From: Raillietiella orientalis
Lineage: Eukaryota
Assembly: GCA_036172245.1 (NCBI GenBank)
Contig: JAYWIR010000030.1
Coordinates: forward strand, 1,860,001-1,924,000
Direction: 5' to 3'
Length of the DNA stretch: 64,000 nt
Shown: positions 1,155-34,485 of the stretch, piece by piece
Layout: each line of letters starts with the position of its first letter
Numbering within the stretch: the stretch's first letter is position 1
Made by a program: the position numbers and the translations under genes
The notes under the pieces: model-generated
What the model was told of the DNA's origin: nothing
Database searches by the model: none
What the model saw: only the letters and a program-made list of their open reading frames with translations

Positions 1155-1320
1155 TAGGAGAGGCTCACGAAGCTCTTCATCACTGTTTACTCTACTCGAT
1201 GGGGCGTGTAACTCTTCGAGTTATAGGGAATAACCCCAGAAGGACCAAACTATAAATACAGGTAGGCTCACGCTTGGAAATGAGCCCCAAAGGATACCCC
1301 TGTCCTGGTTGTCTTCTATT
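1155..1320 (-). mobile_element. tRNA-headed SINE-like family, 3' fragment (copy 1)
   Basis: aggctcacgaagctcttc...gcgtgtaactcttcgagttatagggaataacc aligns with the family 3' end at ~17803, ~20151, ~26090 and (reverse) ~34480. Confidence 0.7.
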
Positions 1321-1334
1321 TCCACCAGAAAGAC

Positions 1335-3450
1335 CGTGGCTTTTCTTAATATTCAAAATAACCTCATACATTGTGGTGGGACACGTGGTCCATCACGCTC
1401 CGCTTGTGCATGGACCTGCAGGGTCGCCGGTGCGCACACCGGCGGGGCTGACTGACAGCGAAGGGGGAGGGGAGAGAACAGAAAGTAAAAAGAGAAAGTA
1501 AATAAAACTCTTTGCGAGGATCAGGAAGAAATCACTGTTTGCTATGGGGAGTCTGCATCCTTTGCAGGATGTCAGCTAGGCAGTCCTAAGTCCAGTATTT
1601 CGTCCGAACAGGTTCCAAGTGGGGCCATCATCTCTAAGGGGGGTTCCAAGTGGCCGCAATCCGCTAAAAGTAATCTACGAACTGGACGGCGTCCCTCTCG
1701 CTTCTTCCTCTGTCGGCTTCGCTCCAGGCTGCCACAATCCTGTGGATGCAGCAAAGCGCTTCAGGGAGTGCGGCTGGCTGCAGTACGTCCCGCACAAAGT
1801 GGAGCTGTAAGAAGTCCCTAGGGGTGCCAACTGGAGTCCGTAAGGTCGTTCCGAAAGCTTCTCACAGGAACTGGAGGGCAAGATATCCCACAAGCAGATG
1901 CGACAGGGATTCGCGTTCCCTGAATCTTCGACAGTCCGAGCTCAGTGTCCAGTGGTTTCGGCTGCGTCGTAGAGAAGACCCCTAGACAGTTCTTGCCCAA
2001 AGAGTCCACGGAAGGGATCAGATCCTTGTCACTCCTCTGAAGAGAACCCGAAAGGGCACTTCCAAATTTCTTTGAAGGGCTCTCCCTGAAGAAAGCAGCG
2101 CGCTTCTTACACTCTGGAGAAACAACTCTGGAGGGAGGTCATGGCTCTCTTATCACGACCGAAAGTTAACACCAAAGAAATCGGCTCCTTGAATCCTGGA
2201 AGTAACCCGGAGGATCAGTTTCCAATTCAGGTTACTCACGAGGACATACGGTTTCCAACTTCCACCAGCGCCACAGCATCATCCTGCGAAAGAACTCGAA
2301 GCCCACGACGTACCTCATTTCTTGGCGTTGCTCCTTACCCGGTGGAACATCAGCTCCTTCAATGTCCCCCCTCCTCCCCCCCAAACAGTTCATCTTGCGA
2401 CTTGTTCTGTGAAAAGTTGCTTAGACACCGATTCGCAGAAATGGCGCATTGAATCCGGAGGGCGTAAAACGAAGAGGACCAACCCTTTTGTCCTTTGTAG
2501 ATAACCTTTGTGCTGCTGCTACCGTTTCCTCTGTTTAACGAGCTGCTTGACATGGAAGAAAGTATCCTGTCTCATAAGTGTCGCCTGCCTTCCGGGTTTC
2601 CGTTAAAAAATTGAAGTCATCTTGAGAAATCAGGTGGAAGTAGTGCCTGGTTGGGAATTTCCATGTGGCCACTTCATTCCAGAGCCATCAGTGCACAGCG
2701 ACCGGATGCCATCTGGGCCAACTCCATCTCAACCAGGTCTGCACAGAGCAGAACCACCAGTGCAGAGCCTCCTATCGGCGACCAGTTGTTTACGTGTTCC
2801 TGACCAACTTTTTGGAACAACTGATGATAGCACCTGAGGAACACCTCGAGCTGTGGTGCTTCTTCACGAAAGACAGAGCTTTCGCCTGTCGTACAGGTCG
2901 CGCCACTGGGCAAGTGCGTCCATGGAGGGGCGAAAGGAAGCCTCTGAATATGAGCATGATGGCGCTTGGCTAAACTTTATGGAATCGCGGGAAAGGAGCC
3001 CGGCATCACCATGCACCCCCTTAACGGCAGCGACAAATCACAGCTGGCGTCATGGTAAATCCGCGCAATTTCGACACCTTCACTCTCTGGAGCCGCACGG
3101 TCGCGGCGTCCCTCGAGGCAGCTCCTGAAGAATCCTCTGCCACGACCCAAACCGTCAGAGAGATGCGATTTTCCCAAAGCAAATACGGAACTGCGATCCA
3201 AGGAAGCTCCTTTGAAAATTATTTTCACCATTTCCAAACGAACACCCCGTCAGCCGCGACGGGATGTGCGTCCACGAAGGAAGCAGATGGCATCTCCGTA
3301 AAGAATTCTGCGAACCACTCAAGAGAGCGGATCGAGAGTTTTTCTTGTCCCTTGGCTTGAAGGCTCCTTCCCGTATGCTCCGGCCCTATGCTCAACAGCA
3401 GCAAAGAAACCGAACTTCAAAACAGCCAGTCGTCCATGCGCTGACCATCA
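1335..3450 (-). mobile_element. Degenerate RLE-type non-LTR element (RT/thumb plus 3' UTR), interrupted by SINE copy 2
   Basis: VNNWSPIG (NWRPI-like) in ORF 2674-2913; LGVF...LSKI (thumb-like) in ORF 1818-2009. The 3' UTR at 1335-1575 is similar to the one at 27535-27795. Confidence 0.5.
2010..2350 (-). mobile_element. tRNA-headed SINE-like family, 5'/middle fragment (copy 2)
   Basis: ctctgaagagaacccgaaagggcacttcc and ccaacttccaccagcgcc match copy 4 (20440-20470, 20660-20675). Confidence 0.7.
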
Positions 3451-3499
3451 GAGAGGAACGACAATGGACCCCAAAGCGGACCAATCTCACGGTGCTACT

Positions 3500-4530
3500 G
3501 CTGATGTCTGATGGTCAGAGTTGTCCACCAGTGCACGCAAGGGTGCTTCATTGAAAGGAAAGGCACGTGGTGCTACTGGATGCCATCGAACAGGCAGGGA
3601 ACGGAGGTCGTGCTGCTCTCCGATCACTTGGTCGAGGAGAGAAGTCCTGTGGGAAGGGTTCGTCGTTTCCCGGAGCTGCAGAGTCGCTCGAAGAATCTCG
3701 ACTACGTCTCGGGTTGCGCCACCGCTTTTGCTCTGGAGAGGAAGTTCTCCCAATGGTAAGTGCACTCGAACAGGCGGGACACCACCGAGATGCCCAGGCC
3801 CAGACGAGATGCCCTTTCGCATCTCGTCTTCAAGATGCTCTCGGAGAGCCGAGTTCCACCTCGGCTCTTGCGCAGGGAGATGCCCTCCTCGCCAACCGGT
3901 CCTCGCGAGGCCACTTCGTCTCCCTGCCCCTGGCGCAGGGATGTCCAGGAAGCGGGGGACTTCTCTTGGCCGCCGGAACAGCTCCAACGAGCTGCGCCGG
4001 CGTCGTGGGTGCCGCGCGGGATGGCGAACGCTGCTGAGAGGGCAGATTCGAGTTCCTCCCGGAGGAAGAAGTGAGGCCGTCGCCGCACCAGATCCTCGGA
4101 GGCATTGCCAGGGTGGGCACGGTACTCGCCCTCCTGGCGCACCTTTACATGGTGGAGGGCGCCGCGGTCTCCCAGTAGGAGGTGCAGGATGGACCCATTC
4201 CTTCGATGCCATCCATTCCTTCGATCCATACCTCGCGCAGCTGAGGAAGCTTCTTCCCCCCGTCACGTGAGCACAGCACCTGCTGCACGCGAGTCCCGAT
4301 GCAGAAAAAGAATTGCTGTCTGCTGCGTGTCAATTCCTTTTGAGAAAGGTCCCTTGAGTGCGGAAGTGCCTTTGAAATGGTTACTTCGGCTGGATGAGCC
4401 GAGCTTGACCGCCAAGGAAATGGGTGACACTTGCAGTGGTAAGAGGGTCGAAGACCTCGGAACTGATGGACGAACCTCTTCTCTTGTTTTTCTCACGAAT
4501 TTCTAAGCCTTTTCAATGAAGAATTTCTGT
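3500..4530 (+). mobile_element. Degenerate RLE non-LTR fragment ending in the endonuclease region
   Basis: ORF 4105-4506 contains IAVCCVSIPFEKGP, matching the RLE xxxDVxxPFE motif. Confidence 0.5.
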
Positions 4531-4559
4531 TCTGCTGTTGTTTCTGCCGCTACTGTCTA

Positions 4560-4990
4560 CATGGTAAGGAAAAAATGAGTAATAATCCTATGATCCCTGG
4601 TGACCTCGACATTGCTCATCCATAGGCGATATAAATTGCGGAAGCTACAGGCAGACGATCTCTCCGGACATCATCATCATTTTCATCGGTGACAAAAATA
4701 ACAATCCTCGATGGTCGTGGTAACGTACAGGACATATGTCTTTTGCATTCCATAGACGAATGTTAGCTTGCCATTCGAATGCTTGCTGTGACTCAGATGC
4801 AGGAGCAGCAGCTTCCAGGGTTCGGATATCCTTTGGCACCTCAAAAGCCAGTTGGAAATCCAAAGTAATTGATCGAGCTGGCAAGGAATCTCCAGGAATT
4901 TACAAGCGCTGGCATAGTCCAACGAGGAGTGAGTCCATGAGGGATCGCACCATGCGTTGTATCCATGGAACGTGCTGTCTCGCTCACCGA
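4560..4990 (+). mobile_element. RLE endonuclease remnant
   Basis: SPDIIII (~4662-4682), then after a frameshift KITILD, and ISFGTSKASW (IVGxLGxW-like). Confidence 0.5.
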
Positions 4991-5639
4991 GAGAGCAGCC
5001 GGGAAAAAATTAGCTAGCTCTTCCCTTATTGTTTATCCCGTGCGGTTCCTGTAATGTCTCGCCTCAGCCAACTCTTCCATTTCTCCAGGCAGCCACATGG
5101 TGTTCCCTGGCATATTAACGCACGTGAGTAAACATTTGCCCGTCTTCTTTGATTGGATCATTCTCGACCTGACGAGCTCTAGCAATTCCGCGAATTTTCG
5201 CTGGAGACTCCGTCCCGAGCCAAAATTACTGCGTAACTTCCGATGTGCTGCATCCGGCAGGAATGCTAACTGCATCCCTGGAATCGCACCTGCAGGATAA
5301 GGGAAGCGATTTCCACCGAAAGAGAAGATCAGCTGCAGCGACTTGGCCACATAAATCGCCTTCTACCACTTTCACGGTCGCCGTTTGGGAGTGAAAATCG
5401 CCGCTGTCATGATGTGACACGTCTTTCGGATGCATACCGGCGACGGAGACAACGCTTAGAAACTCCAACAAGCTCCTCCTGAAGGTACGGAAATGGACCA
5501 GTTTCTATGGAAACGTGCAAAGGGTCCATACCTCGATTTCGGAAATCATGCATCTTCGGGGGGAGCATGGCTTTCGTTCATCTTGACTAGGCCGGTCAAC
5601 TCTTTTAAGTCTGCATCTCCAGGCCGCTGAACAGAAGTG

Positions 5640-7940
5640 AAGCCTGAGAGATGGTCGCTGCCACCGACAGTGGTGAACGTGCGGAGGTTTCCGTCCGCGG
5701 AATCCGTTCCCGAGTTGACGAAACGTCGTCTAGAAAAGCACCGCATCTCCCTTGAGCGAGTCTCCGTCCTTCGGACCGTCGGACTTGGAAGCGGGCGAGG
5801 GAAGCCACAGTGGGAAAGGACTGTTTTGCCAACTCTCAGCTTCCAGTTGGTCCGTAATAGATTCACTACACCGGGTGGCGTTTATTCCAGGACCGCAAGG
5901 GAAACAACTTTCGACCAGCGCTCCGTGGCGCTGTTTCTCCCAGGGTGCCTTCACTGGTACCTAGAAGGCTTTCAGCATCCACCATTTGCAGCTTCACACC
6001 TGCAGGAAGGAAGACAATCCCTCCAATCTCTATCCGGAAATCTCTCTCAGCCTCCCTCGGAAAGTATCAGACCCTGCACGGCTCGGACAAGTCGCTGCCA
6101 GCATTCCTCTCGTTCTCCCTTCCCGGGCCCTGTGGAACTCGTCGCTACGTGGCTCTCGATTCCCGGCAAGCCAGTTCCCGTGTCTGCCACTGCGTTCCTC
6201 CGCGGATGTCCTGTAGCCCTAGGCTTGTGCTCCCGCTACGCAGTCTGCTTGCTACGCTGCTCGCCGTTGGCAATTCCGCCGTCTCGGGACACCGGGATTC
6301 TGGCTGGTCGCCCTGTTTGCACCCTGAGGATTGGCAGACCAGCGACTTCCTGAAATCCGCGAGCCACTCGCGTGAAGAAACGATCCCCTGGATGGGGTGA
6401 TCTCCGTCAGCTACGACACACTCCGAAGCACAAGTGGCTAATCAGTATCCCCAGCTTCCCCTCAGAGGGCAGCATTAGCTTCTCGTTGATTGCTTTCACT
6501 AGCAACAAACATAATCCCCCCAGCATTCTGCCGAGCCCGGTGCACGACGAGACAAAAGGGTTCCTCCAAATCTGAGCCGGAAGTGCGTATACGAAGAGCC
6601 ATCCTCGTCCACGTGACCAGTTGAAGGTCTACCTAGGAGACCCGGAATCCGTGACTAAAGACTTTCGGGGATGGGGGAAGACGTTCGATCCGACAGACTT
6701 GCCAGCGCCCATCGCCGCTATAGTCGTGCTCGCTGATAATAGTCGCCGTCGTCTGCTGATGTTCTTCAATGTAGGGCGGTTGGAGGGGAGACTGCAATGC
6801 TCTCAGAAAAGCGACGATGGGTGATGGCCCTTCGTTCCTGACGATCCTTGAATCCCGGTTGTAGTCAAGTGACCTCATCCTTACGTGCCGGGTCACTTCT
6901 TCGAATAAAAAAGCGAACCAGTCGAACTCCCAAATGGAAGGGTCGGGCATGTCCTATCCAAGGGGTCCGAGACACACCGGGGACGCTATTACGAGGGATG
7001 GGGAGGACCTGCACCCAGCAGATGAACCAACGGAAATGCTGCGGACCGGACTCGCGCTGAGGTCATCCTGATTCCTGGGAGCTGCACCGCGCCGGACCGA
7101 CCGACACCTAAGTGGCTCGCGACTGCCTCAGGCATCCTTCCGGCACGGGCCGTTTCCGAGCACGACGAGGGACTTCTCTGCAGGACGGACGTGCCCTCTT
7201 TCCGCTGCTTCCGCTGCTCTCGTGGGTGGCGGAAAACGAGGCTGGGAGGAGTGGACAACTGACACTCTCGAAGTGCAGTAGCTCGTGGATCATCGGAATT
7301 TGCAGTGGATCAGTCTCTGCTGCACGCGAGATCGCCCACGCGACCGCGCGCGTCCCTTGGGCTTTGCTGGCAAGATGGCCACGTGCTGGTAGGGAAGAGG
7401 AAGGATGGCGATCGGGAATTTTTTCTCTGAGCTTCCCGAGAAAGTCCTCTCACCCACCATTTGTTCTCCTGATAAAGATGACGTGAGGGCGTGGTCTTCG
7501 AGGGTGGTTCGCGTGATTCCCCATGACGCGAAGGGTCCTGCACTTCGAGATCTGACAAGCCATCGGAATATGCGGAAATATTGATGGAAAAATTGACCTT
7601 TTCCTTCTTCCCAACAGAATAGAATGATGGCAGCGACAATTTTATTGTTCCGCCTCCATGTGATAAAATCTCTACCAGCCATTCCGCCGAAGGTAGCGGC
7701 AGGCTCAGGAGGAAGTCTTGAAATTCCCACAGGATTCCTCTGCTTAGCCGTTCACGTCTGCAATGTGGACGCTCGGATCGCGGATTCATCTCCACGGAAT
7801 GACAGTCGGCGCAGGATTCCATCTCCCGATTTGTTCGTTTATCGTGACTACTCGCAATGTATCTCTGGCAACCCGGCATCGGATTCTGACTATTCCAGTT
7901 TTCTTAATCTCTTTTCCCCCACGATTCCTACGTACTCCTG
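5640..7940 (+). mobile_element. Degenerate RLE non-LTR element (RT to RLE, pyrimidine-rich 3' UTR)
   Basis: KEDNPSNLYPEISL...KV (RT domain 2-like, ~6007-6068); IIGIC...IAH (knuckle/RHD remnant, ~7290-7340); SPDKDD..VIPHD...MRKY (RLE PD..D..P..KY, 7466-7581). Confidence 0.6.
6882..7536. repeat. 655-bp inverted duplication, left arm (partner 11902-12556)
   Basis: Near-identical reverse complement; mirrored ORFs 7112-7486(+)/11952-12326(-) differ by one residue. Confidence 0.97.
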
Positions 7941-11539: not shown

Positions 11540-14500
11540 GTGCAAATTTTTTATGGTTTTTCTAATGGACCCCTCGTCCGGGATGTCAGCCTGTGTGGGA
11601 CCCCGAATCGAACGCAGAATTTGCGTGCGGATACTATCTGCAGAGGTCCGGATGAGCGTCGGCGAAGAGGAAACTCAGGGAGCAGTCTTGGATTTCATCT
11701 CAGCTTTCTTCGTCTTCACACCGAGAACTGGCTGCAGCGTCTTCCCGATCTGACGGTCAAACAAGGTCAAATGAATGCACAAGATGCTCCCTCACTTTCT
11801 CTCATCGCGAGACCGTGCAGGAGACCATATTGACAATGATGGTAAGCAAAGGGGGTGCTCAGGAAGCGCAGCTGGTGGCCTTCCGGATCTCTAGGTGTAG
11901 AACCCTTCGCGTCATGGGGAATCACGCGAACCACCCTCGAAGACCACGCCCTCACGTCATCTTTATCAGGAGAACAAATGGTGGGTGAGAGGACTTTCTC
12001 GGGAAGCTCAGAGGAAAAATTCCCGATCGCCATCCTTCCTCTTCCCTACCAGCACGTGGCCATCTTGCCAGCAAAGCCCAAGGGACGCGCGCGGTCGCGT
12101 GGGCGATCTCGCGTGCAGCAGAGACTGATCCACTGCAAATTCCGATGATCCACGAGCTACTGCACTTCGAGAGTGTCAGTTGTCCACTCCTCCCAGCCTC
12201 GTTTTCCGCCACCCACGAGAGCAGCGGAAGCAGCGGAAAGAGGGCACGTCCGTCCTGCAGAGAAGTCCCTCGTCGTGCTCGGAAACGGCCCGTGCCGGAA
12301 GGATGCCTGAGGCAGTCGCGAGCCACTTAGGTGTCGGTCGGTCCGGCGCGGTGCAGCTCCCAGGAATCAGGATGACCTCAGCGCGAGTCCGGTCCGCAGC
12401 ATTTCCGTTGGTTCATCTGCTGGGTGCAGGTCCTCCCCATCCCTCGTAATAGCGTCCCCGGTGTGTCTCGGACCCCTTGGATAGGACATGCCCGACCCTT
12501 CCATTTGGGAGTTCGACCGGTTCGCTTTTTTATTCGAGGAAGTGACCCGGCACGTAGGGGTGGGGAAGGTCTCTGTTGACGGTGGATGCGTCGATCCGTT
12601 TGCAGGAATGCCAGTCTTCGGAAGCTGACCTCACTTCAGATGGCCAAAGCACGAGAAGCATTCGATGAGCAGTGGCTGCTGCTGGGAGCGGAGAGAAGAT
12701 TCATCTGTACGCCCGTAAATCGGAAATTTGTAGCTTCAGGGCCCGTGGAAAGGCTGCTCACTGATCCTGCCTCCTTCTGGAGGATTCTTCCGAAAATTGC
12801 TCGTTCTGGAGGAGGAGGAGGTGAGTTCGCTTCAGTGAAGGGTGGGGAATCTCTTTCCTCAAATTCGGGATGGCTGGAGGGAATGGCTTGTGCAAGAACT
12901 GCTGGACCCACTTCTTTCACTGTAAAACTTTCTGGCTGAGCGAAAAAAAGCCGGTTGGGTAGAAAGAATGCTACATCCTTTAGCCCTAAAACGGAGGGGG
13001 TTTTCTTGTAGAGGTGATGATACTTGTATACAGTGGGGAATGGCTCGACCACCTCCGCGAGCCCAAGGACAATCGTCTAGTGCTTCTAGACGACAGGAGT
13101 AATGTCACAACCGTCTTCTCTCGAGTATGACTGAGGCCGTCGTTCCGTATCCCTGGCAACCGCAACGAGCCGGTGCCGAGCGGCGATTAGCGAACGAATC
13201 TTTGGAGCGTGCAAGGTTTGCTTCCGGATCAGCCTCCCTTTATTTGGCCTGAAAACAGACACAAATTGAGGAGCAATATTAATTCGCTTGCCACATGGGG
13301 GCGAAAGGGAAGCAGGCGCAGGAACCGGGTTTGTTCTTGCTGAGGGTCATCTTCGGAGATTTCTCCGGAAGAGTAGCAGCGACGGGTGGCCTCATGTTCG
13401 ATCTCCATTGTTGTGGAAGGGGAGAAAAAGGGGGTCCGAGAGACCTTAAGCAGTCGGGAAGGCAAGGGATGGGATGACAGGAGAAGGTGAGTGCCCACGA
13501 AACCCAGTCTTCGGTTCGGGTGGTCTCGTCCGCGATTCCTGAAGCTTCAGTCGTCGTCAAATTCCGGCTCCCGGAATGCAGGACCTTTCCTGGTGCACCC
13601 ACCTCTTGCGTGATGCCATCTTTAACAAATCTGCTTGACAAGATTCGCTAGGATCGTCCTCCAGAATGGCTGGCTCCACCCTCCCGCTTGCTTAATTTCT
13701 TCCGGAATCGAGAGGCGCAGGTTGGACCAAGAAGGAAAGGTGAGTGCTAGGTGAAGCCCCTGCATCTGGCATCGTTTCCTAGGGCCCTCTCAGGGAGCTC
13801 TAGGGGAAAAGGTGGATGAGTGGGAGGATCATGCCACGAAATCGAACACGCAGCGCCCAACTTGAACACCTTGGCAATGGTCTCCTCGCTGTCGGGCGGT
13901 CGCGGTTGCACACTGACTTCCAAGTTTCGTCAGGTGTCCCCTTTCGTTCACACCGAAGACGCACTGGCCTCTATCCTGGAAAATATGCTATTCCTTAGCT
14001 TCACGGATCAATGCAAATGGAGACAGGAGGTGCCTGACATCCGACCGGATGCTGGATGTGGATCTGCAAGATCTAAAGTCCTGTTGGAAGGCTCGTTCTC
14101 CGTGAGCAGAAGGAGGGAAGCTCGAAATGCTCCCTGGAAACCACCACGCTCAGGGCTGCTCTTCCTCAGAAAAGGAAGACTCGACAGGAAGGTAAAACGG
14201 GCATTTCTGCCACACCATCTTGGGGACGACGAGGACTTGGCGGTGGGCGTCCGCCGAGGTCAGCTGCCTGGCGGTTTGTTCTAACTAAGGAACTACTCCA
14301 GCAACTCTCCTCGACAGCCCCTTCCCTGTGGATGGAGAGCTCCGTGCTCACTCTCAGAGGTCATGGTGCTGTTCCTGCGCTGGACCATCCGAGAAGATGG
14401 AATCTCTCTTTCGCATACTCCTGGGTTGAAGCGCAGTTCTCTCCCCCTCCCTCCCTCTTCCTGGAGTATGAGTTCTTCTCGGAAGCTCTAGCGTTCCTGT

Positions 14501-14760: not shown

Positions 14761-17700
14761 CATCCCTCACGCACACGAAACGGTTTTTTTTTATTGATTT
14801 TGCATGCCGCTTTTCCTTCTCTGCCTCGCCGACCCATTCTCTTGGACACGTGACTGCGGGAAGATGCTGGTCTGATCCGTACATTGTGGGAGGCGACTTC
14901 CCTAGCAGTTTCCTTGTTCATCTATCTATGACTATCCATCTAGCTGGCGCAGCACCATGAGCAAAGTCACCAGTTTCCTGCAAGCAAATGCATGTAGGCA
15001 GGTACGGATGGATGAAGATGTAGATAGTTCAATGGACAGATGTATGGGAAAGGAAGATGGAGATGCAGGAGTAGACACAGACGTTCGTCATGCAGATCTT
15101 TGTAAGCTGACCTTGCTTTAAATGGCCAAAGCATGAGAAAGACACTGCAGACCGCGAATTTCTCGTAACGAGCAGCTGCTGTGTTACTTAAGAACAACGA
15201 AGAAAGTGTTCTGCCGCTTTCAGCCTCTTCCGGCAAGTGCGCGCAAAGAGCCCTCGGACCAAAGCGAGAAGGCGAGTCGTCGCCCCGACGGCCGCCATCT
15301 TCCGCGTCCCCCACCCCCCGCCTTCTCGGCCGACCTGCTGATTGCTTCCTCGGGATCAGGGCACGTATCAGCATGGAGTGAACGATGGGACGTGCTGCGC
15401 TGCTTGCAAGGGACATACTGGAAAGAGAAGGGCGCGGCCTTACGCCGCTTCCCAGAATTGTGGGAGGCGCCTCTGCAAGAGCAAAGTCCGCATCCTCCAC
15501 ATCTCGCGCCGTGCATGAGAGGCGCGCGGGAGGGACACATGCCGATGGTCAGACAGGAAAGCGCGCTTGCCTAGAGGTATAGGAGGAGGACAGAAGTGCC
15601 ATTTTCACTCCTACTCAACAGCCAAGTTGTCTAAGGAAGCACCGCTGAGACGAATGCGTTTCCACGTGCACCGAGGTGTGGAGGATGCGTAACAGCTCGT
15701 CTCCCCTCGAGAAGATACTCTTCTGAGATGAACGTAATGAATTTAAGTTACGTGTGCAGATGTGAGCACGTACTATCGCACGTAAATAATTCAGCTCAGA
15801 ACGCTTTGTGGCTGCTGAATCCAGGCGTCTTGAGCGGGAGCGACGTTGCGTCCGCACGGAATGGAGTGTCATCGTCGACGTGCGTCAGCCGCATATTCTG
15901 TCTGCGTATTTTCACGAAGCAAGGAATGGGAAAAAGATGTTTCGCTTACCTGGGACTTTTCTCGAAAAAAAAAAAATGCGGATTCTTTCAGAGAAGCGGA
16001 AGCTCCTCCGAAATAAAACCCGCTCTCTTGTCACGCGAGCGGAGGAAATTCGCTTTCCAGCTCAACTCTCAGTCTTTCGTCGCCAACGACAAATGTCCCT
16101 GGATGGCTCCAAGGAAACACCTGGACGCAAAACTATGACACAGCGTCGAATTAGTGCTCGCATTCGGCATAAACATCCAATTATCAGAGCCTCAAATCGA
16201 ACATGCTGCCGCTTCTTGCTTAGTGGAAGCCTCGATGCCTTCAGTTAACATGCATTTCGTTTTAGGCAACACGCTGAAGAGCTCGAACTCTCTCCGAATT
16301 ATTCCTGGTACATCGGACTGCGCTTTGGCGTAACTAAAAGCTGCTAATCTCAAGAGCATTGACTGAGCAAGAAATGAGAAACAGGAGCGGAAGAGCGGCG
16401 TTAGGAACGCGCGGCTTGATCATGGCGGCAAGCAGCAAGTCATCATGCAACCGAATCCTGATTTCGTCGTCATCGGCACAACCGGTCTTGTTTCAGGCGG
16501 GTCCGCATAAGTCTGCGCTCCGTTTCGAACCCACTTCCTTGAGGCGCACGCTGGCTTCTCCACTCTTCACGCGCCACGTACATTGTTGCGTATGACGGAC
16601 GGTCTCATCCACAGTGGTGAACTTTCACTTTCGGCGCACCGCTTGCTGAGGCACATGTCGCTGCTGGTAGAGGCCTGCTGCCGCCTCTTCATCCGGATGA
16701 TGGCCTGGACAACGCGTCCAAGACATGCACGTGTCCCTATCCGATGCGGACCTTCCGGAATCGTGTTAAGTACCGTGCGACCTCTCCATCCCATTGCCTA
16801 TTCGTTTGTTCGTTCATTGGCCCTCTTCCAGACCACCACGCTCCCCCCTAGTTATATCCTTAGTGAGCGTCCCTCGTCTTTATATAAATCGAAGTGAAAA
16901 ATTTGTATCGATTCATGTTAAATAGTTGGCTCGGCAATCCGGGGTGAGAAAGTTGGTTCCTCGGACGACGTGCGCACTCAGTGCGTGCCCCGTTCGCGCC
17001 GCACGTTGGGGCTCACCGTTCTGAGGGTGACTCGGGAGACCTCGAGTTCCCGTGCAAAGGGCTTGCATCATGGCATCTCCTGCCCATGGTGGGGTCGGTG
17101 CTTGCAACTTCCCGGTGGAGCAATGGAGAGCCACTCCAAGGCATCTGCTCCTCTCCATTCTGTCGTGACTCTTCGATTTTTCAAAGGGGCAGCAGATTTT
17201 CTAGGAGGCCATCTTGTTTTTTTTTCTCTGATACCAGTAAGGGCTCTTTCATTTCCTCTCTTTCCTCTTCAGACCACTGCTTTTGGTCGCCAAAGAACTT
17301 GGGCATTTCGAGAGGTCAGCTCTAAGAGCATGTGCAGGACGACGGCCATGCTCAGCCCTATGAAGTGCGCACAGTGCACAAAGTCGGGAGGATTCCTTGA
17401 ACGGGCGAAGAACGTGCCTCAAACCGACGTGCTGGGCTCCACCTTTCCATCTGTTCGACCCCAAGCCACTCGATTCCTGCCGACCTGAGGCGACGCGCCT
17501 CTATGAGTCCCTACGACACATTCGCTCATGCTGAAAATCTCTAGCAATCTGGCGCTACTCCTCAGCATGCTCACCACTACTTTAGTGTGCCTCTTGTGTT
17601 AGTACTTCTTTTTGCATCGCAAGGCATTTTGTTCATGGGCCCCCTGGCATCAGCCCTTTGGATCAGGATTATTCGAGTGCATTTGGAGGATGACGGAAAT

Positions 17701-17799
17701 CTTTCTGAGTTCTTTTTCTGTGTTTGCTGTTTCCCTTCCAGCATTGCTTTTTATTCGGGTTTCTATTTTTGGGGGTTCGCTTAAGAGCCGTCGCGCACC

Positions 17800-18385
17800 T
17801 GGCGGCTCACGCAGCTCTTTGAAACGGTTCTACGCTACCCGAAGGTGCGTGTAATTCCTCAAGATAGGGAGTAACTCGGGAAGGAACCGCCCTATCAATC
17901 CAGGAAGAGCACGGGGTCCGCTCCTCACACGCCTGGGGTGGGATCCCCGAAGGGAACCTCCACCCTGGTTGTCTCCGAAGGGGAACGCCGAAGGGAACCT
18001 CCTTCCTTATTCTCTCCGGAGGGACTCCCGGAGGAATCTGCTCCATTTTTCTTCTCCGAAGGGGAACCCGGAAAGGACCCGCTAGTAGGAATTTATTCTT
18101 CGGACCGAACCCGCAAGGGAAGAGCTCCCTGTCTTCTCCTCTGAGGAGAACCCCGAAGGGACACTTCCGAATTCAGAAAGGCGCTCCCCGAAGGGAACTG
18201 CACTCTTTCTCCTCCACTCTCTAGAGAGATGGCGACACACCTACTCCATGGTAAGACACGGAGGGTTCCCCCCGAAGAGGGGTTCTCTCCTTTCACAACT
18301 GGAAAAGAACTTCCCATTCCTTGATTCCTGGAACGAACCGGAGGTCGACTTCCATTGTTCCGGTCACTTATCAGGGGCATCCGGT
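17800..18385 (-). mobile_element. tRNA-headed SINE-like family, 5'-truncated copy (copy 3)
   Basis: Colinear with 20143-20660; eight ccgaag (reverse cUUCGg) motifs. Confidence 0.75.
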
Positions 18386-18449
18386 TTTAACCACTACAAG
18401 ATTGCCGCTTTGTACGTCGAGAGAGATTAAACCAATGGTTCTTAGTGCC

Positions 18450-19500: not shown

Positions 19501-20142
19501 GGTCTAATGAGCCAAGTGACGCGTCCAGACTAAAGCCATGCGAGAATACCTGCATTTTTATATTCTGTGTGTGTCACTTTGACCCACGTGTTCTTGAAAG
19601 CAGTCCAAATAAGCAGCTTCCAAGAACACAGTGAATAAAAATTTGCGCCGAGAGGTGTTCGAGGACGTTTTCTTTGACCTCAGCCTCCTTAGATAACCCA
19701 TTCGGTCTTCTACCAAGTACTTGAGCTGAGGATGAGTTTTTCGAAAGCCTCTGGAGCGATGCAGTCGACAGAAGAGGAGTTTTTATGTTCCAGAATCGTT
19801 TCCTTGTCTACAATCAACCAGAATGATCTCTTGTTGAAATTGTTTGCATTATGATTATGCTTCCGCCTCTGGTTTTCTGGTCATGAGAAAAACTCCGAAC
19901 CAAATACGTTGTGCTGACACCAAAGAGAGGTGTGTCTTTCAAACTGTCCTCAATTAGGGGTTCCTGAACGCAACAAAGTCCATGCACCAATAACAGCACC
20001 GGATCCAGGGTCACTGTAGCTGTGGTCATCTTGGTCCTCTTAAAAAGCGCGACATTACGTTCGTGTTGCTCCGTCCTCATCGTCGGAATCCTCTCTTTTC
20101 ACTGCTCCTTGTGTAGCCAAGTGTTGAAGGGCCTCTCGCCCT

Positions 20143-20830
20143 CTTAGGGAAGGCTCACTAAACTCTTTACGAACTGTCCACGCCACCCGAGGATGCGTGT
20201 AACTTCAGTTAGGAGTAACCCTAGAGCGACCAAGCATGAATCCAGGAAACCCGGAGGAGGGAATCCGTTTCCCTCATACTCCTGGGCGGGAACCTGGGAG
20301 GGGATCCGCGCCCTGGTTGTCTTCGGAGAAAACCTCTTCCTGATTCTTTCCGGAGGGACCCCCTGGTCTGTGGATTCCGCCCCATTTCTTCTCCTCCGCA
20401 GGAAACCGCCAAAAGGATCCCTTCCTGGTTTCCTCCTTCTCTGAAGAGAACCCCGAAGGGACGTTTCCAGATTTCTCTGATGGGCGCTCCCCGAAGGGAA
20501 CAGTGCGCTTCTTGAAGAGACAACTCCCGAAGGAAAGGACGTCTCTATTTTCAAAATTGGAGGGAAACCACGAAGAGAACCGAGTCCTTGATTACTGACA
20601 GAACCCCGAGGGATCAATTTGCAATCCCGGCCGATCAGCAAGGGCATCCAAGGGTTTCCGACTTCCACCAGTGCCTCACTCGAAGCCTACAGGCCAACCA
20701 GTGTCATTCTACGGGAGAAAATGGAAACCCATGACGCCCCCCCTTCTCTCAGTGTCGCTCCTCTACGTAGGGATTCGAATCCTAAACGCTTGGTACCACG
20801 AGTGGAGACTGTATCCACACCGCCGCCAGC
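20143..20830 (-). mobile_element. tRNA-headed SINE-like family, near full-length copy (copy 4)
   Basis: B-box-like GGATTCGAATCC at 20771-20782, hairpin-rich body, family 3' end gagtttagtgagcc. Confidence 0.75.
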
Positions 20831-20999
20831 GCGTCCATGTGCCTACGGGCCTTCCCCTTGTGTTGGACTCCAAGGTTCTCTGAGTTTGTAAGTCCAACTC
20901 CAAGGCCCTATTATGCGTCCAAGAATCGAAACTCCCTAAAGTTTAGCTTACTGGATTCTGTGATTGACCAGCGCCTAGGTCGGAGTTATGAGACTTGCA

Positions 21000-23514: not shown

Positions 23515-23519
23515 TGGAA

Positions 23520-24364: not shown

Positions 24365-24560
24365 TCATCTTCCAGAACAGTCGCTGGTAAAGCTAGCGAC
24401 GGAACTGACGGCCAAGATCACCACGCTGATGGCAAGGGTTATTGCCACCAAGATGGTGACTACGATGACGGCCAAAATCTTGATAGCGACCACGATGATC
24501 GCTACCATCTTTCTTGGAGGCGACCATGATGGCGGTGGGGAGAAAGACGGAGTCATCTTC
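24365..24560. repeat. Degenerate low-complexity repeat
   Basis: Recurring gatgacggcca(a/g)atc / gcgaccacgatgat-type units. Confidence 0.5.
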
Positions 24561-24599
24561 CTCTTTCCTTATTGAGAAGAGGAAGAGAGGTTGTTCCCC

Positions 24600-25150
24600 G
24601 ACTCATTCCCCAATGCTCGCAGGACAGGGACTCAGGGGCGTTTGCGATTCCTGGTAGCGGGCGCGCGATTTGCCGAAAGCCCCGGTTCTCCCACGATAAG
24701 CTGCTTCCTGTGGCTCCCTAAGGAGCAAGCTGAGGATTCGAGGAACGCCGTCTGGGTGGGAGCTAAACTGCCGCTTTTGATCACAGCAGATTTTCTCCTC
24801 GGACCTCTGACTGTCCTCTGTCTTTGCCCTGAGGTAATCTCCCGAGGCGCGCGCTGATATGACCACCGGGGACCGCTCCTCTCAGGATAATGGCCCTTTC
24901 TTCAGCCAGAGTAACATCTCAGAACGTGGACTAGCGGATCCAAACCGGTTACTTCGGGATTCTGATGCACCCATACACGTCTGTGGCACGCTTTCTCTGC
25001 GCTGCGGGTTCCAGGGTCCAAGGCGTTCCTCTTCTCTACTTCATCGCTCCCAGAAGCAGCGTTTGGGTTTCTTCCCGCATTGGTGTGACGGTTGCAGCTT
25101 CTCTGAGGAGGGATCTATCCGCTGCTGGTAACCGACAACTTCTTGGGCTT
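24600..25150 (-). mobile_element. Degenerate RT fragment
   Basis: NRFGSASP (NAFGSVPH-like, ~24926-24950) followed by DGVPRILSLLL (GVxQGxPLS-like). Confidence 0.45.
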
Positions 25151-26084
25151 GGAGGACGTCACCATTTGCGAAATCATCCCGTCTCCTGTTTTACTGATGA
25201 GCTCCCTGGAGCTCGCCCTGGCGGGCAGGGTCGACTCGTGCTCCGAAGGCGATGTGTCAACCAGGCAGGGAAGCCTCACTTCCTGTCGAAGTCCGTCGCA
25301 GCAGCTCCTTAGGAGCGCCTTCGCAGCCGATTCATGTCGGTGCTTGCAAAGCGTGCAATTCGGAGAGCAGCCTCCTTGCCCGGGGAGCAACAAAAAAAAA
25401 AAAAGGAAAGGAAAAAAAAAGGCAAGAAGATGCTGACTTTCATCGCTCGCGTGCGCCCTCACAGCTGCACCGATCACTCGCTCGTTCTTGATCTGCCATG
25501 GGAAACCCAGCTCTGCACAGCCCGGAATTCCGTGACGGCAGAATCATGCACGAAACCAATACTACTCGCCGGCTGAGCTCACATGCGCTTTCCATGCAAC
25601 GGCAGCTAGAGGAGCTTCTCCGTGCTTTCATCGTCTTCTTGAGCCTCCGGAACGATCCTGGGCGATGATCAGCCCAAACCACAAGGGAAACCATTCCGTG
25701 GAAACGACTCTGCGCTCTTGGAAGTGGATGCTCTTCACTCTGCCTTCTTGTCTCCGAAGAATTCCCCTCCAATTCACTTCCCGCACGTCACAAAAGAGAT
25801 GTGCGAAATCATTTGAAGGCATCGGAGATGCCACATCTGCAAATCCTCGTGCGAGTTGCCTCGTTGCTCTAAGACATCAACTGCTGCTTTTCTCGGTTCC
25901 TTCCCATTCTGAGTCATCTTGCAGCATTCGGTACGATATGATCTCACACATCCCTTGCAGGCATCGCTTTATCACTGGCACGCAGGATCCCTAACAAGGC
26001 ACATCTTCCACGTCATGCAACCCACGAACTCTGGCTGCTTGTAAGAATTTTGGGGGTGCTTGCTAAGTACTGAAGAACAGTCCG

Positions 26085-26900
26085 CCTAGAAGCTCCCGAA
26101 GTTCTTTGTCCTTGTTCCCATATCACCCGAGGTTGCGTGTAGCTCTTCAAGTTATAGGGGGCATCCCGAAGGGACCACCCTATGAATCCAGGACAGCTCC
26201 GAAGAAAGGAGTTCGTTCCTCTTACGCTTGGTAGGGGAACCTTGGTTCTCTCCGAAGAGGACCCTGGTGGGAACCTCTTCTTATTCTCTCTTCAAAGGAA
26301 CCTTCAGGAGAGAGAGCACTCTTCGTTTCTTCTTTAAAGGATATCCGAAAAAGATCCGCTCCAGAATTTCATAACCGTAGGGGAACCCGGAAGAGAACAG
26401 ATTCCTTGATTCCTGGAAGGACTTCGGAGTGTCAATTTCCAATCTCGACCAGTTGATGACGGATTCCTGTACCCGACTTCCACCGGTGCCGCACCTGAAG
26501 TCTGCAAGTCAACCAGCGTCATCCTGCACGGCGGACTCGAGACCCACGAACTCCTGGAGGGGACTGCTCTATTATTTCTTCTCCGGAAGGGACCCGCAAG
26601 GGAAGCTCTCCCTGTTTCCTTCTCTGAAGAGAATCCTGAAAGGGGGCTTCCCCATATGCTCTGAAGAGTTCTTCCCCAAGAAAAGAAACGCGCTTCTTAC
26701 AGTCTGGAGAGGCACCTCCCGAGAGGGGTATCAACCGGCTCCATGGCGAGGTTCCCGTTCCACAACCGGTGGGGAACCCTGAAAGGAACCATCTCCTTGA
26801 TTCCTTGAAGGGACCCCGGAGGGTCGACTTCTAATTCCGCTACCAGTCAACCGAGACATTCGGTTTCCGGCTTCCGCTAGCACTGCATCCCTTACAGCCG
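26085..26900 (-). mobile_element. tRNA-headed SINE-like family, two partial copies in tandem (copy 5a 26085-26545, 5b 26560-26900)
   Basis: The body segment tccttgattcctggaagg...ccgacttccacc occurs twice (~26400-26485 and ~26795-26880). Confidence 0.7.
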
Positions 26901-26999
26901 GCAGCCTAACGGCTTAATGGGAGGAGGTTTTTGTGGAAACCCCCGGAAGGAGGAAAGGACTGGGCGAGTGGTCCACGGGCCAGTTCACCAACGCTGCGA

Positions 27000-27795
27000 C
27001 CCCGAGTGCTTGACTTCATGGACTTTTGCGCCGGAGCGTAATACTGGGTATTCTGGAGGAAGACCTGCAGTGGCCTCCAGGGGTTCATGAACCACTCGCA
27101 CCCACCCCTTAAAGTTGCAGGAGTCGGCGTTGATGCAGCTGCACTGGGTCTCCCGTGCAACGCCAGCCGGCATCACTGAACATGGGAGGAGGGGTGGACC
27201 GGAACTGTGCTCGGTGTGGGGAGCGGGAACCCCTCCCGAACCTCCTAGTGAGCTATGCTGCCCTCTGGTTCCTTTGGGGACACTCTGCCGCGACCCATGG
27301 AACACCCGATGGCAACACCAGAGACGTTCTAAAGCGTCTCTTCCTGCGGGACGTCCTCACGCCGGCCGCATCCCTAGCAGCACTTTGTTGCCTACGCAGA
27401 ATCGTGAGTTCATGGAGCAGTCTCAGAGGAGGACAGTACGACAGGGATGACTTCTATTTTGCTGTCCTCTTTATCCTCTTCATAAGGACAGCGTCAAGAT
27501 GTCCCCATCTGGGAGTCTTGGAACAGGAACTTGCCGGCATCCTTACAAGGATGCAGAGGATGCAGACCCTCCAGAACACAGTGATCCCTTCCCGAAGGGT
27601 CCCCCTTTTCTCATTTTTTGACTGTATGTTTTTTGTTTTCTTTTTTTTTCTTTTTGTTTGTCTCCCCTTTCCTGTGCTGCCGAGGCGAACTCTGGCCTGC
27701 AGGCCAGTTCCCAGCAAGCTCCTTCTCGTATTTAAGAGTAACGTGGCAGGATCAAAAGTCCTGCCACAGACGTGCATCTTTATTTTTTATCAATA
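27000..27795 (+). mobile_element. RLE non-LTR 3' fragment (CCHC knuckle, RLE remnant, 3' UTR)
   Basis: RNCARCGEREPLPNLL (CRxCGxxETLxHIL-like) and LFLRDVLTP in ORF 27155-27796. The 3' UTR has a U-rich tract, a 9-bp hairpin at 27743-27767 and a terminal AATAAA. Confidence 0.65.
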
Positions 27796-27799
27796 AACT

Positions 27800-27986
27800 C
27801 CCCAGCGTGACCAGGTGTCAACCAGTGCCACACCTCGAAGCTAACGGCCCAACTGGAGTTATCCTGCAAGGTGGACTCGAAACCCACAGCGCACCCCTCC
27901 ATTCTCTGGGTCGATTCTCCACGTGGGGATTCGAACCCGCAACGCTTCAGTCAACAGAGACGCAGCCGCTGGCACGGGCACGTGGC
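27800..27986 (-). mobile_element. SINE-like family head (copy 6); best-preserved tRNA-like 5' end
   Basis: Reverse strand GCCACGTG...GCGTCT...GAAGCGTTGCGGGTTCGAATCCCCACGTGGA: intact B-box GGTTCGAATCC (27927-27937) and acceptor-like pairing CCACGTG/CACGTGG. Resembles tRNA-Arg/Asn, but the D/anticodon arms are broken. Confidence 0.75.
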
Positions 27987-30099: not shown

Positions 30100-30720
30100 C
30101 GAAGGTTCCCTTAAACCGTGCGTTCCAGATGGCGCCATTCTGCCACTCATGCGAATGAAAGTCGCCAGCAAGGAGGCATCGGCAGCCTTGGGGAAGTGAA
30201 CGTTTCTCTGTGCAGATCCAGCGGCTCGGCACCGGGGAATATTGGGGTGATACTCGGCGGGCGATGCTCTCCTATCCCTGGCCGAAGCTTCCGCATTCAA
30301 GAGCAGGTCCATTGGTCCTTTCCTCAGCGGGACGGGTGGTGGAACCCACCATCCAGGAAGCACCATTCCGAAGGGATGGGATTCTGCTTTACCTCATGGC
30401 AAAAAGGAAGGTGGAAGCAGCAAAGATCTAAGCTCGGACTGGAAGCTGTGTTTACCTCTGAGTGTTCTACAAGAAGGGATGGGGATGCCACGGCAGTGCC
30501 ACGAGGGATCTGAATGCTCCGTGGTCTGGTGGATTGAGAGACTCCTGGAGAAAGCCATGGCTCCGAAGAAGACCTCCTTCCGCCTGCACGGATATTCTTG
30601 CCTCTAGGTGGGTAGTCCAGGATGCTGAGCCTTGTCGTTGGAGGAAGCGGCTCTGTTGCGTCCTCTCCGGACCCCTGGAGGACTGTACGTGGGCGCAAGG
30701 GAGAGATCCTGTCCTTCCTT
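30100..30720 (+). mobile_element. Degenerate RT fragment (domains 2-4)
   Basis: ORF 30210-30431: YW...PKL...AGR...IQEAPFRRDGIL (QxxFxxxDG-like). Confidence 0.45.
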
Positions 30721-31169
30721 CCTTCTAAACCACCGCCACTTGCTGCGGGGTAACGACGACGAGGGGGGAGGTCACTTCCGGACACGTGAAGGGCGCTCAC
30801 GGTGCGTGGTCGCAGCCTCCGACGTTTTCCTACCTTCCCTCCCCCTCCCCCCGTTTCTGTCTGCGGGAGCCGAGCGCAGGAAGAGGCGCGACAGCTTCCC
30901 ACGGAAGAGGAGGAAAAAGAGGGGAGGAAGGAGGCGGAAGATGATGCGCGCAGCAGCCGATGCCAAGACTTTGCCCGAACTTCGGGAGGAAAAAGTTGGG
31001 CACTCTCATGAAAGTTTCGTCGCTTAATCAAGAAAACCGGGACGTCCGTCACTCTCCTCGTCCTCCCCTTCCCTTCCCCCTGCATCTCCTGGATTCCGTT
31101 CCTATATATCCCCTTTATCCACTCTTTTTTTCATTTCTTCTTCCTTTTTTTTGGAAGGGGGAGGTCAAA

Positions 31170-33830
31170 TGAGCCAGAGAAGCCGCCGCCGCGCCTTGGG
31201 CTGGCTCCCGCGGAGCCACTTCTGAAGTCATCCATGCTCCTGCCTCGAGCAGAGACCACCACCTGAGTCATCCCAGAGCGCTCCCGAGGGAGGTTGAGAC
31301 ATCCCGCGATCCCTCTCCTCGTGCGATCCCTCCGGGGAACCTCACCTGCCCGGTTTCTCGGATCCCGGGCACATGTGGGACTCTGCTCGAGCTGCGTTCG
31401 CCGCCCTCCGCACTCCCAGGATACCGGCCGGGAGGTCGGTTCGCTCCCGGAGAGATGGCAGCCGATCCCGGCTTCCGTCTCCTAGGGAGACGGGACCTGC
31501 GCTGTTGCGGCTCCACCGTTCTGGGTCCTTGGGAGGACATAAACTTTCCCGCCTGCCCCTTCGAGTCTTCCGGATACCCGGAGCTTGGCAGGAAGGGGAC
31601 TCCGGAGACAGCTGAAGAGATGATATCTGAGAGGCTGGGTAGATGGCATCGTCACATCTTTCTTCCCGGAACGGAGCAATAACCGCCTCCCCCTCTTTTC
31701 TTCCTTCGAAACTTCCTGCAGGACCCGCGATGACGCAGTCGGGCGTTCCCTGCAGGAAGAGCGAATGAAAACAGCGAGAGGGATGGGGAAAATCGAAGGA
31801 TGCAGAGGGAACGCTCGCCCGTCCTCCCGGTCGCACGTGGAAACCAGGGAGGAACCCCAAGGAAATTCCTCCAGCCTTCGTTTCCACCGATTGCAGGCGC
31901 ATCTTCAGGGAGGAAACGACCGGGAGGGAGAGAAAGTGGGGGTAGGGAAAAAATTGCCTTCGGGAAGCGAACTGATCCCGTGGTTTCCGTAGAAACCTCT
32001 CACGGTGGACCAGACGTCACGATTTGCTCAGAAAAAGGAAAAGGCGGTAGCGGTCCAGGACTCTCTTCTCTGCAGAGTGGTCACGCGTCCGATCCAAGCC
32101 CAGCTTCCTCACTTCAGAAGATTGCTCCTGATCAGCGCCCTAAGCACGGAAAGCTCCTGACGCTGCTCCGCCGGCCGCAGCCTCCTCCAGTCGATATGGC
32201 GGAACGCATTGCCGTCCGAGGGGTGCCAGAGAGGACTGAAAGGGAAGACTCCCGAAGACACACCTTCCAAGAAGATGCGAGCATGAAGAAGCCTCACGTC
32301 ACGTCCCCGCGCGCTCCTCCCAGGAGAAGCGGGACTCTTCGCAGGGAAAGGGAGCTCCCGGAACGTTCCAGGCACTCCGTCCTCCCGCGCACTCCAGGAA
32401 GGAGGAGCTACGGGAGATGCTGCCCCCCCTTCTTCAGTCTGCGCTCGGTGACAGAAGTGTGGGGCACCTCCCGGGAGTGTAGGCCTCCTCCTTCGCTCGC
32501 CCTCCTCAATTGGCCTCCGGCGACTCCTCTGGGAACGTCCAGCCTCGACACTGGCGATGTCGTCTGGCGGAGGCGGTTCCTCCGGAGAAGGACCGCTACG
32601 CGCTCTCCACTCCAGGGCCTGCAGTTGAAGAATTCCCCTCATTTCCTCAGCCTAGGAGCGCTGTTCCTTCTTCCACCTCTTCCGCCTCGCTCCTCCGCGA
32701 GGATTCTCAAGCTTTAGAGAACCCGAGCCCCCCAACACCCCGCGGCTAGGGGATCTTTTGGAAGCAGCCAGATCCTGCGGGTGGGCGAGAGGGCAAGGAG
32801 GGGAAAGCGAGAGCAGGCCAAGCACCGCTCCCCTTCGGGGTCGGTTCGGTGAGGTTGCTGTAGCGTTGCCGAGAGGACCAGCAGAGAAGGAGCAGGGAGC
32901 GCAAGCTGGAGGGAGGTGGACGCGCCTTCCTTCGGCACGCGCACGAGGTCAGGACTCCCCCTCGTGCGCTGCTAGCGGAATGAAAGTGAAAAGTGGACAC
33001 CACCGAGTCCCTTCCCCAGGATCATGGGAGAGCTCATTGCCTTCCTCGAGAGGAGAAACTGGAAGATGCGACCCCTATCCGGCGATGGGATGGGAGCCGA
33101 TCTCTCAAAGCGCGCGCACGCGCCCGGAGAGGGAAGAGCTGCTCGCGCGGTCGCGAGGGGACGAGCCAGCAGGCTGACTGCCTCCCCGCTCTTCTCGATG
33201 CACATCCAGGGGCTGCATCATCCTTCCTGATCACTATATCACTATACCTGTACACACCTGTGAGTTCCTTGATACACTGGCTGTGTACAGCACGCTTCCA
33301 CGCACGAACCTTCACGTGCAGATGCGTTCTACCTGCGCTCTGGAATGTTTCCGCCCCGGACAGCCAACAGAGAAATCACAATGCTCCGGCGGGAGTGCCA
33401 AGTGTGCGGGAACGATGCTGAGGTCGTGTCACCAGCTGGACCAAAGGGAAAGCGTGCCGAAGAAGTCCTTGCACGCCTTCGTGCGTGGAGGAGCGCGAAC
33501 TGCGGGAAATCGGACGAGTACGGGTGGAAGTCGGAAGATGCCCTGAAGGTGAATCCCAAGATTTTTTTTTTGTTGCAGACCTAGGTTGCCAACCACTGCT
33601 TCTCTTGAAGACCGGGGAAGTGCTTCTCGGCTTCGCAGCAGGGAATTCAGCGTGAGACGGCACCTATTTCAAAATCCCTGTGATAGGACTGTGGGATCGC
33701 GCAAGTTCACTAAGGAGGATCCTCCCACATTTGACACGGAAGGCCACTCAGATCTCACACGTCGCGAAGCAACCAACGACGATGGCCACTGTCATGAAGA
33801 ACCTGCTCGTCTGCCTTCCCGGATCCCCTC
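31170..33830 (+). mobile_element. 5' part of an RLE non-LTR element, truncated in RT by SINE copy 7
   Basis: EEVLARLRAWRSANCGKSDEYGWKSED...KIF (RT domain 0/1-like, ORF 33345-33584) after a long GC-rich N-terminal region. Confidence 0.55.
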
Positions 33831-33834
33831 GAAG

Positions 33835-34485
33835 AATCGAGAAGTGGCCCGGGGGGTTCGCGTGGCTTGCGTCTCGATTTCGAATCCCCACGTGGAGGAT
33901 CGGCGCCGAAAACGGCCTTTCGAGTTCCCCCTGCAGGATGGCGCTGGCTCGCCCATTCGGGTGCGGCACCGGTGGACGGCGGGCGCCCCCGTTGACCGAA
34001 CTCCGGGATCGGAAGCTGACCCTCTGGGGTCCCTTCCAGGGATCAAGAAGTCCTTCGGGATTGTGAAAATAGAGCCGCGTACCATGGAGCTGGCTGATAC
34101 CCCCCCGGGATCGAGTGTGAGAAGCGCACTGTTTCCTGCGGGAACGACCCTTCAAGGAAAATATGGAAGTGTCCCTTCAGGGTTCTCTTCAGAAGAGGCA
34201 ACAAGGAGGGGATCCCCCCGGAGAAGAAATTTCAAGAACGGATCCTTTCCGGGTTCCCTTCGGAGAAGAAAAATGAGGAGTTGCCCTCTCCAAGGGGTCT
34301 CTTCGGAGAGAATAAGGAAGAGGTTCCTTCCGGATTTCCCATTCAAGAGTAAGAGAGGAACAGATTCCTTACTCCGGAGCCTTTTCCTGGATGCATAAGG
34401 TGGTCCCCTCCTGGGTACCCTCTAACTTGAAGAATCACTACACGCACCCCGGGTGGCGTGGAGATAGCGCGAAAGAGCTTCTTGA
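33835..34485 (+). mobile_element. tRNA-headed SINE-like family, near full-length copy (copy 7)
   Basis: A-box-like TGGCCCGGGGGG (~33845), B-box-like GATTTCGAATCC (33876-33887) followed by CCACGTGGAG; body colinear with copy 4 in the opposite orientation. Confidence 0.75.

Follow-up and report, generated by a model that had tools for sequence, protein, structure and literature searches.

The tRNA-related SINEs described in SINEBase, including the quasi-oligomeric CHRS, are interspersed, present in far more than 100 copies and built of a head, a body and a tail, and in the body a short degenerate motif can be repeated more than 10 times (PMC3531059, in part). Under the rules given there a SINE is non-autonomous, is copied by LINE-type reverse transcription, has at least 100 interspersed copies and is shorter than 1 kb, and a tRNA origin is accepted at an identity of at least 60% over at least 60 nt (PMC3531059, in part). 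In mammalian B2, Dip and Ves a T run immediately precedes the A tail, which points to termination with A's added afterwards (PMC8466645, in part). Tailless retropseudogenes and SINEs, which in mammals are a minority and are defined by their duplication, are 3′-truncated copies ending at preferred positions, and some of the duplications overlap the end (PMC5322556, in part). Tx1-Mar LINEs insert in Mariner-N4_AMi of crocodilians at two sites in opposite orientations, and Tx1 inserts in Tx1D (PMC4494074, in part). The known LINE targets in the literature that we searched are DNA transposons, LTR elements, snRNA genes and microsatellites, and LINEs targeting a SINE at several sites were not found in it.

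We have analysed a family of repeats in a 64-kb stretch of the Raillietiella orientalis genome (the window) and in the 210-Mb assembly of 491 contigs to which it belongs. An EF-1alpha exon of this genome has 89-91% identity to proteins of insects and Daphnia, the highest among the matches listed, so that the host is an arthropod and probably a pancrustacean. The family has the dispersal, the copy number, the head-body-tail structure and the repeated body motif of the SINEBase families (PMC3531059, in part), a likeness of definition and description. Full-length elements measure 0.8-1.1 kb, at or over the 1-kb limit (most subfamilies 0.8-0.95 kb, a long subfamily 0.98-1.09 kb), the repeat unit is a hairpin-forming 40-mer, and the head reaches the 60% and 60-nt rule at chance level only. 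The T run directly before the A tail is shared with B2, Dip and Ves (PMC8466645, in part), whereas here, in an arthropod host, no AATAAA occurs in the terminal segment and a 41-nt hairpin precedes the T run. In contrast to the mammalian minority (PMC5322556, in part), tailless copies are here the majority and mostly lack a duplication. The nearest precedent for the LINE inserts is Tx1-Mar in Mariner-N4_AMi, where LINEs likewise favour fixed, unrelated sites in opposite orientations within an abundant non-autonomous element (PMC4494074, in part). Unlike that system, the target is a SINE rather than a DNA transposon, it has at least three sites, one of these coincides with the commonest SINE 3′ end, and the LINEs, which lack poly(A), have a few terminal bases resembling the target. 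The great length, the tailless majority and the role as a multi-site LINE target are the notable features of the family.

Judged from its sequence, the family is very probably a long tRNA-related SINE, apparently inactive now, with no match in anything searched. From 5′ to 3′ the element consists of a degenerate tRNA-like head, about eleven body units of ~40 nt, a terminal hairpin, a short T run and an A tail. No description of it was found in the published literature searched, including a search on SINE, tRNA-derived and UUCG. In the window, Rfam gave no match at gathering score, ARAGORN gave no tRNA, and Pfam gave no family at cut-off in 149 of the 196 ORFs (at least 105 aa; ORFs within SINE copies mostly left out).

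All of the ranges listed in the first-pass annotation are homologous to this one family. The eight pieces which it had counted as at least seven loci amount to six elements, two copies being split by a LINE fragment each, and its length of ~650 bp is too short. A profile search of the window gave seven merged SINE segments, and the features are as follows.

1062-1337, minus strand: element 1, 3′ part (model 572-848)
1338-1988, minus strand: 5′-truncated LINE fragment in element 1, in the same orientation as the SINE; 3′ junction at model ~573, site B
1990-2345, minus strand: element 1, 5′ part (model 65-505), which has lost the first B box and retains the second T-arm-like motif
17688-18408, minus strand: element 2 (copy 3 of the first-pass annotation), 5′-truncated and headless, starting at model 155-178, with eight CTTCGG
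17941-17958, minus strand: example UUCG hairpin in element 2, 6 of 7 pairs formed
20064-20833, minus strand: element 3, of the old subfamily and nearly full length (model 4-839)
20770-20781, minus strand: B-box-like motif of element 3
26052-26549, minus strand: element 5, incomplete and internally deleted (model 101-283 and 499-813), directly next to element 4
26552-26890, minus strand: element 4, body (model 154-561)
26891-27823, plus strand: 5′-truncated LINE fragment (~930 bp) in element 4, antisense to the SINE, site A; LINE 3′ end at 27814-27823
27818-27948, minus strand: element 4, head part (model 46-171), with the B box at 27926-27938 and the duplicated T-arm motif at 27873-27885
33859-34570, plus strand: element 6, old subfamily (model 48-828), with a B-box-like motif at 33878-33889

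The segments 1062-1316 and 1990-2345 are a single copy with a sense LINE fragment between them, the listed range 1155-1320 being its 3′ piece, and 26552-26890 and 27818-27948 are likewise one copy around an antisense LINE fragment. Element 2 is tailless and ends one base past a CATCATCC-type motif. A tRNA-like head had been described as common to all loci, which was not borne out, as the first B box is kept in three only (20770-20781, 27926-27938 and 33878-33889).

A first look through the assembly with one copy as query gave 3885 candidates (40 scored). In an unbiased sample of 40 evenly spaced 10-kb regions from contigs C1-C13, the profile search found 20 segments, which cover 10.9 of the 400 kb sampled (~2.7%) and amount to 19 elements once one split copy is joined. 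This density of about one locus per 20 kb gives ~10^4 loci if it holds genome-wide, an estimate that may be too high for the small, LINE-rich contigs, the sample being from C1-C13; the interspersed copies are well above the 100 of SINEBase. Fourteen of the 19 elements begin in the head and five are headless. The proposed association of head and body holds in this sample, with 12 of the 14 head-bearing elements running on into the body.

A tree of 71 long copies resolves successive subfamilies: an old one (33 copies, mean divergence 20%), a middle one (13 copies, 16%) and a young one (15 copies, 11%), with an additional four-copy group (O1 consensus); seven long copies lie outside all subfamily groups. 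The consensuses are 71-85% identical to each other and differ by gains and losses of modules, and the long subfamily turned up in addition among copies selected by their tail. The nearest other copy to a young query is 89% identical and the closest pair among the tree copies 94%, so the sampled lineages look inactive, the queries being copies outside the long subfamily. No CpG-specific decay was found in the SINE copies.

The first-pass annotation saw the body as full of stems closed by cUUCGg and proposed a highly structured mobile RNA. The motifs themselves are there: copy 3 has eight CTTCGG on the sense strand in 17839-18277, and the hairpin GGTTCCC-TTCG-GGGATCC given as an example is present at 17941-17958 (minus strand). 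The reported bias to the sense strand is also real, with CTTCGG found 18 times sense and 3 times antisense in the seven window segments (dinucleotide shuffles: mean 2.2, maximum 7) and 34 times and once in the 20 unbiased segments (mean 6.3, maximum 15). As a description of the family it goes too far, since three of the seven window segments have no such motif and copy 3 exceeds every subfamily consensus checked.

The UUCG richness is real and is explained by the internal amplification of one 12-mer. The body has a periodicity of 41 and 82-84 nt, and model positions 211-675 match themselves as about eleven units, each ~40-nt unit holding the doubled quasi-palindromic 12-mer GGTTCCCTTCGG. With up to 3 mismatches this 12-mer occurs 15, 15 and 11 times in three subfamily consensuses, compared with shuffle maxima of 6, 5 and 4. 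Because GGTTCCCTTCGG is a quasi-palindrome, its doubling gives a C(UUCG)G hairpin automatically, and because the motifs are copies of one amplified 12-mer, their count and strand bias need one origin only. Repeated duplication of this ~40-nt unit built up the body.

It is improbable that the UUCG tetraloops are instead held in the mobile RNA by selection, whether for stability or for protein binding. Sense-strand cUNCGg motifs number 14, 10 and 6 in the three consensuses, the old having 14 and the young 6, and at seven of the eight sites listed for the old consensus stems in the register of a four-base loop are at least as long as those in a three-base register. Consensuses fold better than shuffles, and the sense strand (z -2.3 to -5.8) somewhat better than the antisense in three of five, but the antisense strand also folds well (-1.6 to -4.6); G-U outnumbers A-C by 12 to 7, in counts that are not independent. 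Stems are kept or lengthened between subfamilies, several in the long subfamily being longer on both arms, with their loops replaced. Against selection on the loops, one amplified 12-mer accounts for the count, there is no CpG-specific decay which retention would have to resist, and younger masters have exchanged loops for UUCU or other sequences: one is UUCU in 9 of the 15 youngest copies, and two further loops are altered in the young consensus. Loops are substituted at rates similar to those elsewhere in the element (0.228 vs 0.182, 0.155 vs 0.150 and 0.086 vs 0.097).

Covariation of the stems, which a structured RNA was expected to show, does not exceed controls. Within subfamilies of this one genome, 60, 4 and 1 compensatory cells were counted against expectations of 47.7, 3.4 and 1.7, control pairs in the first case giving 1069 against 987, and RNAalifold gave no consensus fold for the old subfamily. 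Neither covariation above controls nor conserved loops, the marks of a conserved structured RNA, were found. The data do not support selection on the UUCG loop; weak selection on the stems, or palindrome-driven mutation, is possible, and master copies kept or lengthened stems while often altering loops. With a single 12-mer behind the loops, and younger subfamilies losing or replacing them, the structured RNA with selected UUCG loops is not borne out. The family is not a new class of structured RNA, and its richness in tetraloops is mostly an artefact of amplification. A reading of the motifs as DNA GAA triloops on the other strand was not favoured by the register test.

The 5′ end of the SINE is sharp, with GCCCGCG as its first bases. 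The head holds an A-box-like stretch at about +12 and what we take to be a B box at about +57. A second copy of the T-arm segment (48-84) lies 52 nt further on (100-136), and the second B-box-like motif noted at first reading, which is indeed present at 27873-27885 (minus strand), is this duplicate. Against 53 tRNAs of the same genome the head is 62-64% identical over 72-83 nt, where shuffled heads reach a mean of 60% and maxima of 65-66%, and its local score is 46 against shuffle maxima of 41-46. A tRNA covariance model run at permissive E-values gave no match in six SINE loci. The B box and T arm are clear by eye, and a tRNA origin of the head is likely.

Long Pol III transcripts require the absence of internal T4 runs. 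There are none in the old, middle and young consensuses, nor in 9 of the 10 tail-selected copies, and the four-copy O1 consensus has one; as evidence this absence is weak, shuffles being free of T4 in 2.5-18% of cases. From the geometry of the boxes, the scarcity of T4 runs and the T run before the A tail, we infer that the SINE was transcribed by Pol III. A master copy would be transcribed from its internal A and B boxes into an RNA of 0.8-1.1 kb without a T4 terminator, which would end in a stable hairpin and a U run and then receive an A tail.

The true 3′ end lies 45 nt past the CATCATCC motif. A 22-nt pattern gave 22 exact matches running past CATCATCC (control 0), and most of the 20 of these copies that were fetched extend into the 41-nt hairpin, T run and A tail. 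The same order is seen in 10 aligned tail-selected ends, the T runs are 1-8 long in 12 ends, and the tail folds with a z of -3.2. The SINE-like mobile RNA first proposed is here borne out: dispersed and in high copy number, with its head joined to its body, it has A-tailed full-length copies flanked by target-site duplications. Such duplications, of 11-14 bp and starting with A's, are present in six of eight full-length hairpin-ended copies (score at least 10; 0.1 expected), seven of the eight being from the tail-selected search and mostly from the one long subfamily, so that end type is partly confounded with subfamily.

L1-type target-primed reverse transcription leaves just this footprint of an A tail with an 11-14-bp duplication, and the family is therefore a LINE-mobilised SINE, non-autonomous and copied by LINE-type reverse transcription in the sense of SINEBase. 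These footprints show that the transcript is copied back at a primed target by a reverse transcriptase of L1/Tx1 type. Helitrons or another duplication-free mechanism are ruled out by the A tails with duplications. One A-tailed copy with a 14-bp duplication (L210) lies inside decayed large-subunit rRNA sequence (120-249, 1518-1622). The terminal hairpin of another copy (L048) is duplicated in tandem, and at five loci (L035, L058, L197, L209 and L211) a SINE copy stands beside a second, oppositely oriented one.

An A tail is missing from most copies, which stop close to CATCATCC or at another LINE site. The two 5-nt bins around the end of CATCATCC account for 22 of the 46 ends in copies not selected by tail. 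Among 27 full-length tailless copies without an adjoining LINE, 22 show no duplication and five do (score at least 6; 0.9 expected); four of the five duplications (L003, L004, L016 and L022) overlap the element end by 2-7 nt. By analogy, tailless copies may arise by internal priming, and as the majority they offer thousands of natural events on poly(A)-independent priming. A partner LINE was sought through a shared tail: the best 30 of 150 scored reverse transcriptase loci (3358 candidates) form one group with ends unlike the SINE tail, and 16 matches to the tail motif without a SINE body looked like chance matches. These 30 loci (L061-L090) are an L1/Tx1-like group, many with open frames of more than 1000 aa.

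A hairpin followed by a U run and an A tail, together with tailless copies, is also typical of retroposed cellular RNAs (PMC5322556, in part), and the copies could be read as processed pseudogenes of an unrecognised functional host Pol III RNA. This is very improbable, because the family has successive subfamilies whose consensuses are 71-85% identical and have gained and lost modules, it numbers ~10^4 loci, and Rfam matches within its copies are at chance level only, in keeping with the window search. A solo LTR or a non-autonomous LTR element of the Helenus (TRIMp3) type, itself a dispersed repeat whose LTRs contain tRNA-like sequence (PMC10886601, in part), would suit the 0.8-1.1 kb length and the many copies without an A tail but is scarcely credible, since A tails with 11-14-bp duplications, as against 4-5 bp in Helenus (PMC10886601, in part), refute it for the A-tailed copies, the 5′-truncated copies with an intact 3′ part and the ragged 3′ ends also speak against it, 30 loci share no common sequence past their ends, the element begins with GCCCGCG and not TG, and no paired LTRs, PBS or PPT were seen.

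The LINE-mobilised SINE is itself a target of LINEs. Three or more fixed sites are used: site A, antisense, at model ~170; site B, sense, at ~573; and site C, sense, at the CATCATCC motif. The 3′ end of the site-A LINE has 204 exact matches genome-wide (control 1), and in 58 of 100 matches listed, of the 204 (hand count), the antisense 12-mer of the SINE at site A (up to 3 mismatches) follows directly. Of 14 good matches fetched, 13 continue as SINE body beyond the insert; the inserts have 13 different lengths (83-1323 bp), and a duplication is visible at 10. The site-C LINE end has 83 matches, with the SINE terminal sequence (up to 2 mismatches) following it in 18, and 42 begin with ATC (hand count); in 16 fetched, the SINE lies directly upstream in 10 and the SINE hairpin downstream in seven. 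The site-B junction occurs both in the window and at locus L048. A fourth site may exist at model ~144, where L053 (1655-1949) has an antisense LINE junction. Five of the 19 unbiased elements carry a LINE insert.

Sequence-specific LINE subfamilies use the SINE as a landing pad, independent insertions being found at one nucleotide with a duplication, and at least one LINE subfamily lands mainly in the SINE. It is so used because of its abundance. The inserts are ORF2-like: an intact endonuclease-reverse transcriptase ORF of the same genome matches four loci by tblastn (E 3e-7 to 3e-4). This query has endonuclease and reverse transcriptase domains and a sub-cut-off zf-RVT match, and the inserts are probably target-specific LINEs of Tx1 type, placed near Tx1 by domains and tblastn rather than by a tree. 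SINE-LINE chimeras, formed by template switching or from a composite master, are ruled out at site A by the 13 insert lengths with SINE on both sides, and at site C in the 7 of 16 loci with the SINE hairpin downstream of the LINE. Four of the 16 site-C loci have the order SINE, LINE, ATCC and unrelated DNA, and these may be chimeras.

The last bases of the LINE ends at sites A and C resemble their targets, which suggests RNA-DNA annealing. With their targets, these LINEs are natural pairs for testing how target choice is divided between endonuclease and RNA-DNA annealing. A closed loop between SINE and LINE can be proposed, in which the SINE serves as a multi-site platform for poly(A)-less LINEs, the site-C LINE also primes on CATCATCC in the SINE RNA, and the hairpin array acts as a scaffold. 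Priming on CATCATCC would explain why most copies end there without an A tail. The loop as a whole is a tentative and rather doubtful proposal; if true, the SINE would owe its spread to its own LINE parasite, every new SINE copy would restore the target of that LINE, and the array would keep a 1-kb Pol III RNA stable enough.

The window holds other repeats as well. Decayed pieces of LINE ORF2 are found at 59338-61733 of the window (29-48% identity to an intact ORF of the same genome). An inverted repeat of 1930 bp and 99.7% identity (35197-37126 and 48727-50656) encloses ~11.6 kb, and a 152-bp piece of it recurs at 37250-37401. Pfam gave no family at cut-off in its scanned ORFs, and it could be either a recent large inverted duplication or an element with long TIRs. 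A second inverted repeat, of 680 bp and 98.5% identity (6873-7552 and 11886-12565), has its arms ~4.3 kb apart. Direct repeats occur in 53507-56185, at 54214-54503 and 55897-56185 (92%) and at 53507-53644 and 54675-54806 (74%). The genome is strongly mosaic in base composition, with a GC content of 0.32-0.66 among 10-kb regions (L157-L196).
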